Program-made: the position numbers and the translations under genes
Part shown: positions 824 to 18,064 of the stretch, in pieces
Position numbering within the stretch: position 1 is the stretch's first letter
How the letters are laid out: each line of letters begins with the position of its first letter
From: Nitrosopumilus sp.
GTDB lineage: Archaea; Thermoproteota; Nitrososphaeria; Nitrososphaerales; Nitrosopumilaceae
DNA: 64,000 bases
Direction: 5' to 3'
NCBI GenBank assembly: GCA_963662625.1
Contig: OY759726.1
Span: forward strand, 480,001-544,000
Notes under the pieces: generated by a model
What the model saw: only the letters and a program-made list of their open reading frames with translations
Database searches by the model: none
Told to the model about the DNA's origin: nothing

Positions 824-2169
824 GCAGTTCGTCGTTACTGGTTGCTTATGGCCTTTTTGTCAGACGCGCTGCGGCAGGTAGCGGAATCTGGCGTTCTGTC
901 AGCGCCTAACCCGTCGGAAAATCCCCCGGATCCCCGAGGCCCCCGCATCGTTAATACCGCCAGACTCGCAATACGTCTCATCCCTGTGATCACCGCTTGC
1001 CATATTCCCACATGCCCATGCGGCATGGATTTGTCACCCCCTCATACCGCGACTTTCCTGTCGTCGCCGTACATCGCATCACCGCCTCCGTAGCCGCATG
1101 ACACGTTGCCGGAGAAATTGGCCGTGGTGGCGCCTTTGGGGCGCGTGGTATCCGCGCATGCGCGGATGCCGGATCTCCGGAATCCTCCCTCGCATGAATC
1201 CAGCGCCCCGTTGCCGCCTTCGTCACGACAAGCCGTGGCATTTACAGTGGCAGGTTCGCGGCTCCGCGAAGCCTGGCGTCAGAATCGAAGGCCAGGAACG
1301 CATGGTTTGCAGGAGGGGCTGGCCACCCGCACCACTTCCATGGTTTCCAGCGTCCGGGTTTGCGCCACCGTGGAGCTCACGCTACCTCGACATATCCGGC
1401 AGAAACCGGGCTGCCGCCGCGGCGGCGCCGACAATCTCGTGCTTGCCCCCGGCGGCACACGCGCCAGACAGCGGCTCGCCCGTTGCGGGTGCGTCGGCGC
1501 CCGATTCAGCAGCACGCGCCATGGCGCTTGCACATGCTGATTGCCGGATGCCGGATCCCCGCCACTGCCCCCCCAGGCGCGGACGTTCTGGCGCAGTCCG
1601 CGGGCGCCGCATCGCTGGCTGCCGGTTCCGAGTAGCCGAAAAAGCCTCCCGGGGGATTGTGGGACTCCCGGACGAAGCGCCGTCCCCCGGCCCGCCGGAG
1701 CAGTGCGGCGCCTGGACGCAGTGCGGGGCGGCAAAGGACGTCGCGGGTGACCTCCCGTACGCGGGCGCCGCATGGCCCACAACCAGCCCACTGTGAAATC
1801 ACGCGGCAGAGGATCCGCGGATGTGCGCTGCTTGGATCGTGTCACGGATGCCGCTGCACGCAAAACGAAATGCGGTGCCCGGTCGAAACGAGCTGGAATC
1901 GGACGCGCCGGCGGCGGCGCGCCCACGCGGGCCGCCATGCGCCGGGGGACGTTCTGGTCAAGATGTGCGGTCGCGTGACGCGTTGGCCGTGGCGCCCGCC
2001 GCGGCGCGGGGACTCCATGGCGCGCCGTGCTGCCGGCGCGCGGCCCCCCAGCCGGCGTGGCGGCCGGGCCTGCCAGGCACGCGCGCGCCGTGCCTGCGCC
2101 GCGCCGCGAGCCCGTTTCCCGCCGCGTTCACGATCATGTTTTTATTGATAGGCATCGATAAAGAGGCAC

Positions 2170-14387: not shown

Positions 14388-15143
14388 ATGGCATGGGCAT
14401 ACGACGCGCACGTCCACCTGTCCGACCCGGAGTACGCCGGCGACATCCCCCACACGCTCAGGGCGATGGACGCGGCGAGGATCAGGGCGTGCTGCGTCTC
14501 GATGGACGCGCCAAGCTCGCGGCGGACCCTGGCCCTTGCAGGAATGAGCTGCAACGTGCTGCCGTTCATCGGCATCCATCCCGAGCGCGCCGGCGACGAC
14601 CTGGGGCAGATGGAGGACATGATACGCGACAACGTCGGCGCCATCGCCGGAATCGGCGAGATCGGCCTGGATCCCACGTTTGCCCGTTCCGGGGACGACG
14701 GCGGGAGGCAGGTCCGCGTCTTCGAGGCCCTCCTGGGCCTGGCCGAAAAGTACCAAAAGCCCGTGTCCATCCACTCCAGAAAAAGCCTCGACGAAGTCCT
14801 GGGGATAATGACCTCGTATACCGCAAAGCGCGCCCTGCTGCACTGGTTTGACGGCAGCAAGAGGCAGCTGGGGGCCGCGATGGACATGGGCTTCTTCGTC
14901 TCCTACGGGCCCGTGACGGTGTACGCAAACGACAAGCAGTCGCTGGTCGCGAAGACCGACCCGTCCAGGATGCTCGTGGAGACCGACGGCCCTGTGCGCT
15001 TTTCGAGGTGCTTCGGGTCAAGGCAGGCGCAGGTCAGCTTCATCCCCAGCGTGATCTTCTGCGTGGCCGGGATACTGAACAGGTCCTACGACGAGATGGC
15101 GTCGCAGCTGGAGGAAAACTCGATGGCGTACGTGGGAATATAG
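14388..15143 (+). CDS. TatD-family DNase
   Basis: DAHVHL, GIHP, GEIGLD, IHSR, HWF, ETDGP. Confidence 0.95.
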   Translation: MAWAYDAHVHLSDPEYAGDIPHTLRAMDAARIRACCVSMDAPSSRRTLALAGMSCNVLPFIGIHPERAGDDLGQMEDMIRDNVGAIAGIGEIGLDPTFARSGDDGGRQVRVFEALLGLAEKYQKPVSIHSRKSLDEVLGIMTSYTAKRALLHWFDGSKRQLGAAMDMGFFVSYGPVTVYANDKQSLVAKTDPSRMLVETDGPVRFSRCFGSRQAQVSFIPSVIFCVAGILNRSYDEMASQLEENSMAYVGI

Positions 15144-15171
15144 GTATAAAAAACCCCCGCCCTGCTACAGG

Positions 15172-15603
15172 GTGATGGACAGGGTCAGGAGCATCTCGCA
15201 CTCGGTGCTGGAGGAGCACAGGTCGAAGTTTGGCGAGGACTACGCCGACAACAAGAGGGCCCTGGACCAGGTCTCCGTCATCCGCTCCAAGGGCCTGAAG
15301 AACAAGATTGCCGGGTATATCACTAAGTTCATAAAAAAAGAGATCAGGGAGGAGAACGCGAAAAAGATCCAGGCCGAGGCTGCCAGCCGGCCCGACGACG
15401 TGGACGCGCCGGCGGCCCCGGCGCCCGAAGCTGCAGGCGAGGCCGAGGGGCGCGAGGCCCCCGTGGCTGGAGGCGGCGTAGACAGCCTGGACTGGGAGGG
15501 GAGGTCCGAGGACGACGACGGGGACGGGTCCCATGGCGGCCACGACGCAGGCGGGGCCCCGGGGCAGCCTGCCGGCGGGGACACTGGGACAGGGGCCGCG
15601 TAG
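15172..15603 (+). CDS. rps17e: 30S ribosomal protein S17e with acidic/Gly-rich C-terminal extension
   Basis: F..DY.DNK.AL....IRSKGLKNKIAGYIT. Confidence 0.92.
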   Translation: MMDRVRSISHSVLEEHRSKFGEDYADNKRALDQVSVIRSKGLKNKIAGYITKFIKKEIREENAKKIQAEAASRPDDVDAPAAPAPEAAGEAEGREAPVAGGGVDSLDWEGRSEDDDGDGSHGGHDAGGAPGQPAGGDTGTGAA

Positions 15604-15636
15604 CAGCCCCGGAAGCTGCCGCCCCCTGCCAGAGAG

Positions 15637-16413
15637 ATGATCCGGGTAAAGTTCGTCGGCGGCGCCAGGAAGTCGTTTGCCACGGAGTCCACGAGCATCG
15701 AGGGAGCAGGCATGTCGCTGGACGGGCTCCTGTCCATCCTCCTGCAGATGAAGCCGGAATCCACCCCCCCGCTAGACGTCGGGAACGTATTGGTGGCAGT
15801 CAACGGGGTCGACTCCTCGGCGCTCGGCGGCATGTCCGCGATCCTGGGGGACGGCGACGTGGTAAGCATAATCCCGGTGATCCACGGCGGCTCCCCGTGG
15901 GGGCTCAGGCTGTCCGTCCCGGGGACGCACGTCCACGTGGCAGAGATCCCGGGCGGCGGGCAGCACGGCGCCGCCCTGCTAGAGGAGCTGAGGGCGGGGT
16001 TTCCCAGGGTGAGGCTCCAGGCGGTATACAGCAGGTTCGTGCTCAACAGGCGCCACCTGGAGGGGATCGTCGCGATCTCGGCCAGCGCCGAGAAAAACCG
16101 CGCGCTGCTTTCAAACAAGTTCGAGACGGACCTCCTGATGCGCTTTGCCATCTCCCCGCAGATAGCCAGCGCGATCAGGACGGCCGGGATAAGGCCGGGC
16201 CGGGACTTTCTCCTGATCGCTGCGGGCAGCGCGGGTGCCCTGGACGCGTTCTCGAAGAAGGCTCCCCGCGCGGCGGGTTCCCTGTTTGCCAGGGACAACG
16301 CGCCGTTCCTGAAAAGGCACTTCGGCCTGACCAAGAGGCACCTGGACTCCGTCCTCTCCGACGATCCGCTGGCAGACGTCCTGGTCGAGAGGGCCGCCAC
16401 GCTATTCAGCTAG
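15637..16413 (+). CDS. Fusion: Urm1/SAMP/MoaD ubiquitin-like domain + KEOPS subunit Cgi121
   Basis: N-terminal beta-grasp ending GDVVSIIPVIHGG, continuing in frame into a Cgi121-like domain (SNKFETDLLMRFAISPQIASAIRTAGI..LVERAA). Confidence 0.82.
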   Translation: MIRVKFVGGARKSFATESTSIEGAGMSLDGLLSILLQMKPESTPPLDVGNVLVAVNGVDSSALGGMSAILGDGDVVSIIPVIHGGSPWGLRLSVPGTHVHVAEIPGGGQHGAALLEELRAGFPRVRLQAVYSRFVLNRRHLEGIVAISASAEKNRALLSNKFETDLLMRFAISPQIASAIRTAGIRPGRDFLLIAAGSAGALDAFSKKAPRAAGSLFARDNAPFLKRHFGLTKRHLDSVLSDDPLADVLVERAATLFS

Positions 16414-16923
16414 GCTCCGCTTTGCCTTCTCCGCGCTCAGGATGCCGTCCTTGGGGATCACCGCGACGCCGGCCTCGCCTCCCAGCACCTCCACCAGTAT
16501 GATCTTGTCGGGATCCTCAAGCGAGACCCTGTTGGGAAACTTTTTGGCGATCCTGGAGATCAGGTCCCGCCCGGAGATGTCCGAGTCCCTCTTCTCGATC
16601 GAGATCCTGTACGTGTCCCCCTCCGCGATCCCCCCGCGGACGGCCTCCACGGCCTCCTCTATCTCCTCGATCCGCGCCGCGGCGGCTGCCTGGACCGGTA
16701 TCATCCGGAGGCAGTAACGCAGGTGCCACGGCTCGTCGGCCAGGCGCTCGCGGGTCTTCCTGATCACCATCGACGGGTCCAGGCCCGTCTCGGCCGTCAG
16801 GATCCCAGGCATCCGGGTTATGGAGATCGCGTGGCCCGCGTCCCCGAGGCCCTCCAGGATCCCCCCGAGCTCCCCCGCGGCCTCCCGTTCCAGGCGCCTG
16901 GCGCACGTGACGATGAGGTTCAA
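16402..16923 (-). CDS. Stand-alone THUMP-domain RNA-binding protein
   Basis: TYRISIEKR..VSLEDPDKIILVEVLG. Confidence 0.9.
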   Translation of the reverse strand: MNLIVTCARRLEREAAGELGGILEGLGDAGHAISITRMPGILTAETGLDPSMVIRKTRERLADEPWHLRYCLRMIPVQAAAAARIEEIEEAVEAVRGGIAEGDTYRISIEKRDSDISGRDLISRIAKKFPNRVSLEDPDKIILVEVLGGEAGVAVIPKDGILSAEKAKRSLAE

Positions 16924-17522
16924 AGCGCCGCCAGGACCTCCTCCCTCGTGACCGCCCCCTCCCTGTGGATCCTCAGCTCGCCGCCGGCAAACTCGATGAT
17001 CGTGGACTCGCCGCCGCCCGCGAGCACCCCGCCGTCAAGAAGCAGGTCGTAGCCGTCCACGCTCCTCTCGCATTCCGCGGGGTCGGTGGCCGATCCCGCT
17101 CCCGAGACGTTGGCGCTAGTCCCGACCAGGTACCTGCACCGCCTCAGCAGATCCAGCGTGCACCTGTGGCCCGGCACCCTTACCGCCACCTTCTCCCCCA
17201 CGTTCAGCGTGTCCCTCAGCCTCCGGTCCCGGACGCCCAGGACGATCGTCAGCGGGCCGGGCCACAGCCTGTCGGCCACCTTCGCGGAGCTGCCGTCGAG
17301 GCGGGCAATCTCCCTGGCGGCCTCCGCGGAGTACGCCAGCACCGGCAGCGGGTTTGCCGGGTCCCTGTTTTTGATGCTGTAGATCCTCCCCACAGCGGCC
17401 TTGTCAAACGGGTCGCACCCGATGCCGTAGACCGTGTCGGTGGGGAAGACGACCACCCCTCCCCCGGACAGGATCCTGGCCGCCTCCGTTATGCCGCGCG
17501 GATCGCACCTGGCCCTCATCAT
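16920..17522 (-). CDS. tsaC: Threonylcarbamoyl-AMP synthase (short TsaC/YrdC type)
   Basis: FPTDTVYGIGCD, KNR...PL, WPGPLT, TSANVSG, STII. Confidence 0.94.
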   Translation of the reverse strand: MMRARCDPRGITEAARILSGGGVVVFPTDTVYGIGCDPFDKAAVGRIYSIKNRDPANPLPVLAYSAEAAREIARLDGSSAKVADRLWPGPLTIVLGVRDRRLRDTLNVGEKVAVRVPGHRCTLDLLRRCRYLVGTSANVSGAGSATDPAECERSVDGYDLLLDGGVLAGGGESTIIEFAGGELRIHREGAVTREEVLAAL

Positions 17523-17720
17523 ACACCGGGGGCGGCCATCTTTAATTATTCATTCCCCCGCGGCGCCTGGCGGCTCCCGCCTGGCGGCCCCTGCGGCGCC
17601 GCGCCGGGCGCGGGCCTCCCGCGCGCAGACCCGGCTCCCCCCGGCACGGCAGGCGCGGGCCCGGGCTCGCTCCCTCCCGCCCCCGGCAGGTTTTTAACCG
17701 CGGGCCCGGCGAGGAGACCC

Positions 17721-17780
17721 ATGCGGTCCCTGCCGCCCGACTTTGAGGACAACGACTTCGAGGACGACCTTGACGACTAG
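17721..17780 (+). CDS. Putative acidic micro-protein (19 aa)
   Basis: MRSLPPDFEDNDFEDDLDD; TTTTTAA box at 17691-17697. Confidence 0.4.
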   Translation: MRSLPPDFEDNDFEDDLDD

Positions 17781-18064
17781 ATCCTGAGGCCGAAGCTGTC
17801 TGCAAACCTGCTAAACGTGTAGTACGCCTGCAGGAACTCCCGTCCCGACGGGCTGATCCTGTACCTGCTGGATCCCTGCTGCCCGACCTGCTCGAGCAGC
17901 CCCTGCAGGACCAGCGTCTTCAGGATCCTCGAGATCCTCGAGTGGGAGACGTTCGCCTTCCTGATTAGGTAGGTCACGGTGGCCCCGTCCTCGCCCTCGA
18001 GGTCGTTGCACGCGGTGTACAGTATGTCCCCGATGATCCTCATGCGCGTCCTGTGCCCGGCCAT
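17777..18064 (-). CDS. Winged-HTH transcription regulator (ArnR1/HTH_45-like)
   Basis: RTRMRIIGDIL..LIRKANVSHSRI..Y.IS..GREFL. Confidence 0.88.
   Translation of the reverse strand: MAGHRTRMRIIGDILYTACNDLEGEDGATVTYLIRKANVSHSRISRILKTLVLQGLLEQVGQQGSSRYRISPSGREFLQAYYTFSRFADSFGLRI

Follow-up and report, generated by a model that had tools for sequence, protein, structure and literature searches.

A conserved Ubl-Cgi121 fusion of Nitrosopumilaceae as a candidate linear precursor of a Urm1-like protein and a KEOPS subunit

A 64,000-nucleotide (nt) stretch of a Nitrosopumilus sp. genome (GenBank assembly GCA_963662625.1, contig OY759726.1, positions 480,001 to 544,000 of the forward strand; hereafter the window, which supplies all positions given without a contig name) encodes a protein in which a Urm1/ThiS-type beta-grasp domain, a ubiquitin-like (Ubl) fold ending in Gly-Gly, continues in frame into Cgi121, the tRNA-binding subunit of the KEOPS complex. 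The in-frame fusion is confirmed; the fusion itself and its link to tRNA modification are already known and were published in 2010, when Ubl-Cgi121 was described as conserved in all thaumarchaeal genomes then available (Makarova and Koonin, 2010, Archaea 2010:710303; PMC2948915). From sequence comparison and structural modeling, we regard it as moderately probable that the fusion is a linear precursor, cut after Gly85. This reading is favored because the HGG motif is kept under fusion while the linker behind it varies and even takes a stop codon; because fused, tailed and exact-GG forms interchange among close relatives; because the hinge at the GG is modeled as flexible; because the activating enzyme E1 and the thiolase NcsA occur throughout the family, in which no free Ubl was found; because proteases of the JAMM type are likewise family-wide and the complex model of the Ubl with one of them, JAB1, passes its controls; and because JAMM proteases cut other Ubl-partner fusions right after the last glycine.

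An earlier note on this DNA had described a beta-grasp domain ending in ...IPVIHGG that runs in frame into a Cgi121-like domain, and profile and fold comparisons bear this description out. Amino acids (aa) 4-85 match Pfam ThiS (PF02597; E 1.4e-7, 32.4 bits, cut-off 22.5), and the domain ends in ...IIPVIHGG at aa 79-85, with the two glycine codons at positions 15886-15891; no stop follows the GG, and the same frame enters the Cgi121 domain. The possibility that this second half would not match Cgi121 at all is dispelled by NCBIfam model NF011465 (E 6.4e-31, 107.5 bits, cut-off 40) and by the fold: in a Foldseek comparison of the AlphaFold2 (AF2) model, the top 12 matches were Cgi121/TPRKB chains, for example 8up5_C (E 1.6e-7, TMt 0.72) and 7kjt_H, followed by the beta-grasp folds of Urm1, MoaD, CysO and SAMP1, with 34% identity to Trypanosoma brucei Urm1 (2k9x). 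Pfam CGI-121 (PF08617) scored 17.3 bits for the window copy, under its cut-off of 25, and precomputed PF08617 matches are present in most database relatives of the protein; the NCBIfam Urm1_like model gave the Ubl 19.9 bits, far under its cut-off of 70. A profile built from the fusion alignment matched the Urm1 structures of T. brucei (2k9x, E 4.9e-6), Sulfolobus solfataricus (4wwm, 2e-5) and yeast (2ax5, 0.0012), and its alignment to T. brucei Urm1 places the HGG motifs of the two proteins opposite each other. The gene product does not end in a free Gly-Gly, since the GG occupies aa 84-85 of 258; judged from the sequence, the GG of this Ubl would become free only after proteolysis, if the chain is cut.

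The Cgi121 half is the single Cgi121 copy that a genome-wide profile search recovered in this genome (one contig, 99.5% complete). Mutated residues of mjCgi121 that contact the tRNA 3'-CCA end include F21, K56, M60, Q71, I72 and G80 (PMC7718258). In the profile alignment, the fusion has Q175, I176 and G184 opposite Q71, I72 and G80, and each of these three fusion residues is either invariant or conserved to at least 90% among the aligned fusions; K56 and M60 correspond to the differing residues N160 and T164, and F21 lies outside the aligned stretch.

The earlier note had supposed that the fusion might be lineage-wide rather than unique to this genome, and the survey agrees. With the 258-aa window protein as query, a full-length match was obtained in each of the other 43 genomes that belong to the family of the window, Nitrosopumilaceae, within a phylum-wide sample of 301 genomes; the frame is uninterrupted in 42 of these and carries an internal TGA in the remaining one (G108), so that, with the window's own genome counted, an uninterrupted fusion is encoded by 43 of the 44 genomes from this family, many of which consist of a single contig. 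An order-wide sample of 201 genomes gave the fusion in 40/40 family genomes; its tallies include one unpublished genome, G397, on which no claim rests. In the rest of the order the two domains are encoded by separate neighboring genes, which often share a frame and are parted by a single stop; outside the family, an unbroken fusion was also seen in six genomes of genus g166 and in two further genomes, G342 and G315. A database search scored 8000 candidates and gave 409 clusters with E<=1e-5; of the 120 clusters that were listed, almost all measure 255-259 aa. The relatives are labeled 'KEOPS complex subunit Cgi121', 'sulfur carrier protein ThiS', or both.

These counts leave hardly any room for the suggestion that a stop after the GG was simply lost through an assembly or sequencing error. 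Relatives with a stop in exactly that place do exist, G108 being an example, and nothing else was found in support of this explanation; against it stand the uninterrupted frame throughout the family and the uniform length of the database relatives. A contig of run X1 (16.6 kb, depth 23.5) is identical to the window over 15100-17600, an agreement that does not count as independent because the run may be the source sample itself. Record 4 of run X2 spans 15538-15907 without differences, reaching only 16 nt past the GG codons and not bridging the junction, and the run leaves other parts of the window uncovered.

The junction between the two domains was translated in 70 loci and in six further loci. 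Conservation of the internal GG, a check that the earlier note had proposed, is clear: HGG is kept in 75 of the 76 loci, and H83, G84 and G85 are invariant in all 33 aligned fusions, while the residues just past the GG vary. All 30 family fusions read ...IIP[VI]IHGG followed by a variable S/A/T/L-x-K/R... linker, and among the eight fusions outside the family seven have VVHGG and one, L049, has LHCS. In the 32 split loci, the Ubl stops right after HGG in 21 and carries a tail of 1-7 residues in 11; these tails read TVE, MAG, TVDL, MVGV, S, SNEV, SRRQQ, WHEVDVI, IP and GTFV, and would need to be trimmed before E1 activation. The six further loci comprise one fusion with HGG (L106) and five split loci (L105 and L107-L110), all with HGG. 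Locus L105 is that of G108 (G108:C9, about 925-940, minus strand), where ...IIPVIHGG-A-TGA is followed by TTG-AAA, the start of the Cgi121 frame; this stop-start junction within the linker may reflect either a genuine fission or an error of sequencing.

The fused and the split state have also replaced each other repeatedly. On a quick maximum-likelihood tree of Ubl plus Cgi121 (75 loci, with SH-aLRT support only; L076, missed by the Ubl hidden Markov model (HMM), was left out), the state changes at least six times, and four of these changes are forced by well-supported branches; the root was not inferred, so that gains cannot be separated from losses. Outside the order, every sampled locus is split. 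The fused locus L048 (G342) and the split locus L065 (G359) are sisters from one genus, on branches of 0.071 each. Because of these state changes and of this sister pair, the fused and split forms look interchangeable at the sequence level. At the junction, L048 reads uninterrupted VVHGG-CNERYEM..., and L065 reads HGG-SNEV-stop, with Cgi121 in another frame.

Junction and tree also bear on the second reading that the earlier note had offered, a permanently Ubl-tagged KEOPS subunit. On this reading the chain would stay uncut, the Urm1-like domain would serve as a tethered module of Cgi121 or KEOPS, and the GG would be only a hinge; the module might dock non-covalently on E1, NcsA or another tRNA enzyme, so that synthesis of 2-thiouridine at position 34 (s2U34) and of threonylcarbamoyladenosine at position 37 (t6A37) would be coupled. 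Such a permanent fusion appears rather unlikely to us, and on the evidence less likely than the precursor, the other of the note's two readings. Fixation of the fusion in the family, in both samples, speaks for it, as does the fact that L049 has lost the GG yet keeps the domain; the only other Ubl domain of the genome is also fused, to E1, so that Ubl domains acting in cis may be the rule here, and regulation or coordinated function was among the explanations considered for Ubl-Cgi121 in 2010 (PMC2948915). Several observations, on the other hand, speak against an uncut chain: the HGG, an E1-directed tail, is invariant in the aligned fusions, and the linker past it is variable; exact-GG, tailed and fused forms replace one another; and the linker of G108 accommodates a stop codon. 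Nor does the AF2 model offer a confident hinge. Calculated with 33 aligned fusions as input, it shows two confident domains (mean predicted local distance difference test (pLDDT) 86.8, predicted template-modeling score 0.64), and residues 82-87 (IHGGSP) are the only ones with a pLDDT below 50. Finally, the Gly85 of an uncut chain could not be adenylated, which would leave a conserved E1 and NcsA with no canonical Ubl substrate, given that no free Ubl was found.

The precursor reading draws on the Ubl complement of the genome and of the family. A search of 23,405 stop-to-stop frames with PF02597, PF09138, TIGR01687 and a lineage HMM found two Ubl domains, the window fusion and the N-terminus of E1, and no free-standing Ubl in this genome. 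Both domains have an internal GG followed by Ser; the E1 N-terminus is a SAMP1/MoaD-like Ubl domain ending in ...ILPAVAGG, then SGQ. In a survey of 61 family genomes from 27 genera, ThiS matches occurred in 59; completeness is 72% and 74% for the two genomes that lack one. Of the 110 matches, one lies in a 108-aa frame at a contig end and all others in frames of at least 245 aa, whose lengths fall into two groups, about 257-271 aa for the Cgi121 fusion and about 437-460 aa for the E1 fusion; with the ThiS model, no free-standing Ubl was seen across the 61 genomes. The earlier note had asked about other free Ubls, E1 and JAMM genes, and the inventory it called for thus contains no free Ubl, a single E1 and three Prok-JAB genes.

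The single E1 is MoeB/ThiF/UbaA-like, with NCBIfam E-values of about 1e-63 against each of the MoeB, ThiF and UbaA models. Its identification as TcdA, the synthase of cyclic t6A (ct6A), which would have tied the Ubl to t6A chemistry, was rejected, as the TcdA model reached 3.9e-19 vs. about 1e-63 for the other three. A role of the window Ubl as molybdopterin sulfur carrier is unlikely, since a search of the genome for MoaE (PF02391) found none. The genome also encodes an NcsA-like PP-loop protein (NF047749, E 1.6e-51), with orthologs in 61/61 family genomes, and the KEOPS partners Kae1 and Bud32 are present as well (Table 1).

Three Prok-JAB (PF14464) genes exceed the cut-off in the genome, and each carries, as read by eye, the JAMM signature E...HSHPx7Sx2D (HxHPx7Sx2D); the eukaryote-type JAB (PF01398) had no match in the genome. 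The candidate of choice is JAB1, in which E29, H87, H89, S97 and D100 are invariant in 21 orthologs. The second JAB1-type paralog lies at the end of a GC-rich frame whose long, Arg/Gly-rich N-terminal part lacks an obvious domain and is perhaps left untranslated. JAB1 and JAB3 are surrounded by a cyclophilin-like gene, an H+-PPase, a weak copper-binding-domain match under the Pfam cut-off and open reading frames without Pfam match; no link to Ubl or tRNA genes was seen in these neighborhoods. Prok-JAB was found in 60/61 family genomes and in 52/52 high-quality ones, mostly with two genes per genome vs. three here; the prediction that a fused-only Ubl system needs a JAMM protease in every genome therefore did not fail.

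A complex model of JAB1 with Ubl residues 1-90 supports the predicted binding: the interface score ipSAE was 0.87 in three runs vs. 0.00 for the best of three controls, contact agreement between runs was at least 94% and partner pLDDT at least 88, and Ubl residues 79-89 are placed against E29, H87, H89, S97 and D100 of JAB1. Among 80 solved complexes, 58 attained this ipSAE mark, as did two of 110 mismatched pairs; the JAB1-Ubl model was run with alignments of our own, so that this calibration applies to it only roughly. The model would equally suit a variant of processing in which the fusion is an inactive store and the JAMM cut a controlled release of Cgi121 and/or the Ubl, a possibility that is also in keeping with the two JAMM types of most family genomes and with the similar switch proposed for SAMP1-MoaE and HvJAMM1. 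We consider such regulation quite improbable; the sequence data do not separate constitutive from regulated cutting, and the many relatives that make both proteins separately without any switch speak against a regulatory role of the fused state itself.

Read as a precursor, the 258-aa chain consists of the Ubl, a flexible IHGG/SP hinge and Cgi121. A JAMM/MPN+ metalloprotease, of which JAB1 is the best candidate, would cut the Gly85-Ser86 bond; the Ubl, freed with a C-terminal Gly-Gly, would by analogy with Urm1 and the SAMPs be adenylated by the single UbaA/MoeB-type E1 and could then carry sulfur to the NcsA-type tRNA 2-thiolase, modify proteins, or do both. As expected for its family, the freed Cgi121 would join Bud32 and Kae1 in KEOPS and recruit tRNA via the 3' CCA end for t6A37 synthesis. 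The fusion would in this case simply co-produce two parts of the anticodon-loop modification machinery in equal amounts. Precedents for the proteolytic step exist: HvJAMM1 cuts a SAMP1-MoaE linear fusion in vivo exactly after the C-terminal glycine and leaves a GG-less variant uncut (PMC4443979), DRJAMM cuts the natural MoaD-MoaE fusion of Deinococcus radiodurans (PMC8832034), and precursor processing by archaeal Rpn11 is the topic of a further study (PMC6043591).

Several points weigh against cleavage after Gly85, which is itself predicted from sequence comparison and models. JAB1, E1 and NcsA all score under the curated NCBIfam equivalog cut-offs. NcsA-type enzymes may draw their sulfur from another donor. 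With E-values near 2e-22, the profile of JAB1 matches two chains of known structure named 'JAMM1', 5lda_A and 5ld9_A, and the favorable JAB1-Ubl model may reflect likeness to a JAMM complex that is probably already solved (5lda). Genomes that have free Ubls commonly contain JAMM genes too, and the presence of these genes therefore only fails to refute a precursor. At the junction, the entire last strand, VVSIIPVIHGG, is conserved and not the GG alone, and the GG could be conserved merely as a hinge. A GG-directed cut could not act on the product of the fused locus L049 (G315:C77, from another family of the order), which has LHCS in place of HGG, so that one lineage or more retains a fusion beyond the reach of such processing; the L049 fusion may have degenerated and ceased to be processed. 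The Ubl half of L049 is weakly conserved (tblastn E 7e-6).

Among known systems, the thaumarchaeal Ubl-Cgi121 set is the closest: it shares architecture, lineage and the upstream S17e gene with the window gene, which is a member of this set, and the passages of PMC2948915 concerned with the fusion reveal no difference in kind. The SAMP1-MoaE and MoaD-MoaE fusions resemble the window fusion in that an N-terminal beta-grasp carrier is joined via Gly-Gly to a functional partner, that a JAMM/MPN+ protein is encoded in the genome, and that a cut after the last glycine is needed to free the carrier C-terminus; they differ in that MoaE uses the sulfur of its carrier, whereas the window partner is a tRNA-binding KEOPS subunit with no obvious chemical reason for the pairing, and in that cleavage has been demonstrated for the MoaE fusions (PMC4443979; PMC8832034). 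Eukaryotic Urm1 and the archaeal Urm1/SAMP2-type proteins share the beta-grasp fold, the ...HGG end, the E1 and the Ncs6/NcsA-type thiolase; in contrast to the window protein with its internal GG, they are free-standing and have a free GG. Eukaryotic ubiquitin is encoded as in-frame fusions to ribosomal proteins, from which it is released by a cut after Gly-Gly. The likeness to these fusions, a Ubl fold that occurs only in fused form and a link to translation, is an analogy only, since the Ubl family, the protease class and the partner all differ.

The genes around the fusion (Table 1) form a conserved block. The 4-nt overlap of TsaC with the start of the THUMP gene suggests translational coupling of these two genes; the THUMP gene shares 12 nt with the 3' end of the fusion. 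The earlier note had let both genes overlap this end, which is correct for THUMP; TsaC overlaps only THUMP and not the fusion. The synteny that the note had wished to see checked is well kept: beside 29 family fusions, S17e was found at 28, THUMP at 29, TsaC at 25 and TatD at 27; among 40 loci outside the family, taken with only about 400-500 nt of flank, S17e was found at 32 and THUMP at 28. The co-directional S17e and fusion genes are probably one operon; in Nitrosopumilus maritimus, Ubl-Cgi121 is apparently co-transcribed with S17e (PMC2948915). The C-terminal half of S17e, outside its Pfam match, is a low-complexity, acidic tail rich in Ala, Gly, Glu and Asp, and a similar acidic tail lies upstream of the Ubl-Cgi121 locus of G108. 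TsaC is of the short form, and the Sua5 C-terminal domain (PF03481) had no match anywhere in the genome; the same domain was found in the control archaea Sulfolobus acidocaldarius and Methanosarcina acetivorans. The THUMP protein had no sequence match among solved structures; as a speculation, it might be a tRNA-binding partner of TsaC or KEOPS.

Table 1. Coordinates of the fusion, its parts, its neighbors and candidate partners elsewhere in the same genome (G000, contig C1)
Feature	Position	Strand	Basis
Ubl-Cgi121 fusion open reading frame, 258 aa	15637..16413, stop included	+	Open reading frame and domain matches
Urm1/ThiS-type beta-grasp domain, aa 1-85, C-terminal end IPVIHGG	15637..15891	+	Pfam ThiS, Urm1 profile and fold matches
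Hinge IHGGSP, aa 82-87; proposed scissile bond Gly85/Ser86 between 15891 and 15892	15880..15897	+	AF2 model, alignment
Cgi121 domain, aa 88-258	15898..16410	+	NF011465, Foldseek
Ribosomal protein S17e, 143 aa, 33 nt upstream of the fusion	15172..15603	+	Pfam Ribosomal_S17e E 1.8e-17, aa 5-72
Stand-alone THUMP-domain protein, 173 aa, convergent with the fusion	16402..16923	-	Pfam THUMP E 2.3e-7
Short-form TsaC (threonylcarbamoyl-AMP synthase), 200 aa	16920..17522	-	TIGR00057 E 1.1e-44; Pfam Sua5_yciO_yrdC E 3.8e-47
Small winged-helix regulator, 95 aa, HTH_45/MarR-like, just past TsaC, same strand	17777-18064	-	
Single E1, 445 aa, MoeB/ThiF/UbaA-like, locus L033	G000:C1:663667-665004	-	PF00899 E 5.2e-71, one match
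Kae1	C1:595680-596453		PF00814 E 1.3e-67
Bud32	C1:594494-595084		TIGR03724 196.6 bits, cut-off 125
JAB1, desampylase-like, best candidate protease	G000:C1:331845-332273		
Second JAB1-type JAMM paralog, locus L035, end of a 349-aa frame	G000:C1:139550-140548	-	

The 2010 account also lists a Ubl-E1-TBP fusion for Thaumarchaeota (PMC2948915). Our search of open-access papers and bioRxiv found no experimental test of Ubl-Cgi121 processing, and 'Cgi121' and 'Nitrosopumilus' occurred together only in PMC2948915; the words 'ubiquitin-like', 'Ubl' and 'Thaumarchaeota' do not occur in a 2021 review of KEOPS (PMC8565320). Relative to what the 2010 paper says of the fusion, the present analysis adds the split and tailed forms of sister families, the repeated switching between fused and split states, the finding of no free Ubl family-wide, and the models of the hinge and of JAMM docking, some of which that paper's supplementary tables may already contain.

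The fusion links Urm1/NcsA-type 2-thiolation and KEOPS-dependent t6A synthesis in one of Earth's most abundant archaeal families, and it provides a natural setting for a clean test of the idea that archaeal JAMM proteases mature Ubl precursors in the way known from eukaryotic deubiquitinases. A bolder proposal, which we hold to be distinctly unlikely as a whole, is that all ubiquitin-fold proteins of the Nitrosopumilaceae are made only as Cgi121 or E1 fusions, that their Ubl system is JAMM-dependent, and that the Urm1-like half stays with or rejoins KEOPS, so that 2-thiolation of U34 and t6A37 formation would be coupled on the same tRNAs (for example tRNA-Lys UUU). If the family is truly without a free Ubl gene, all of its Ubl chemistry would hang on one proteolytic step.

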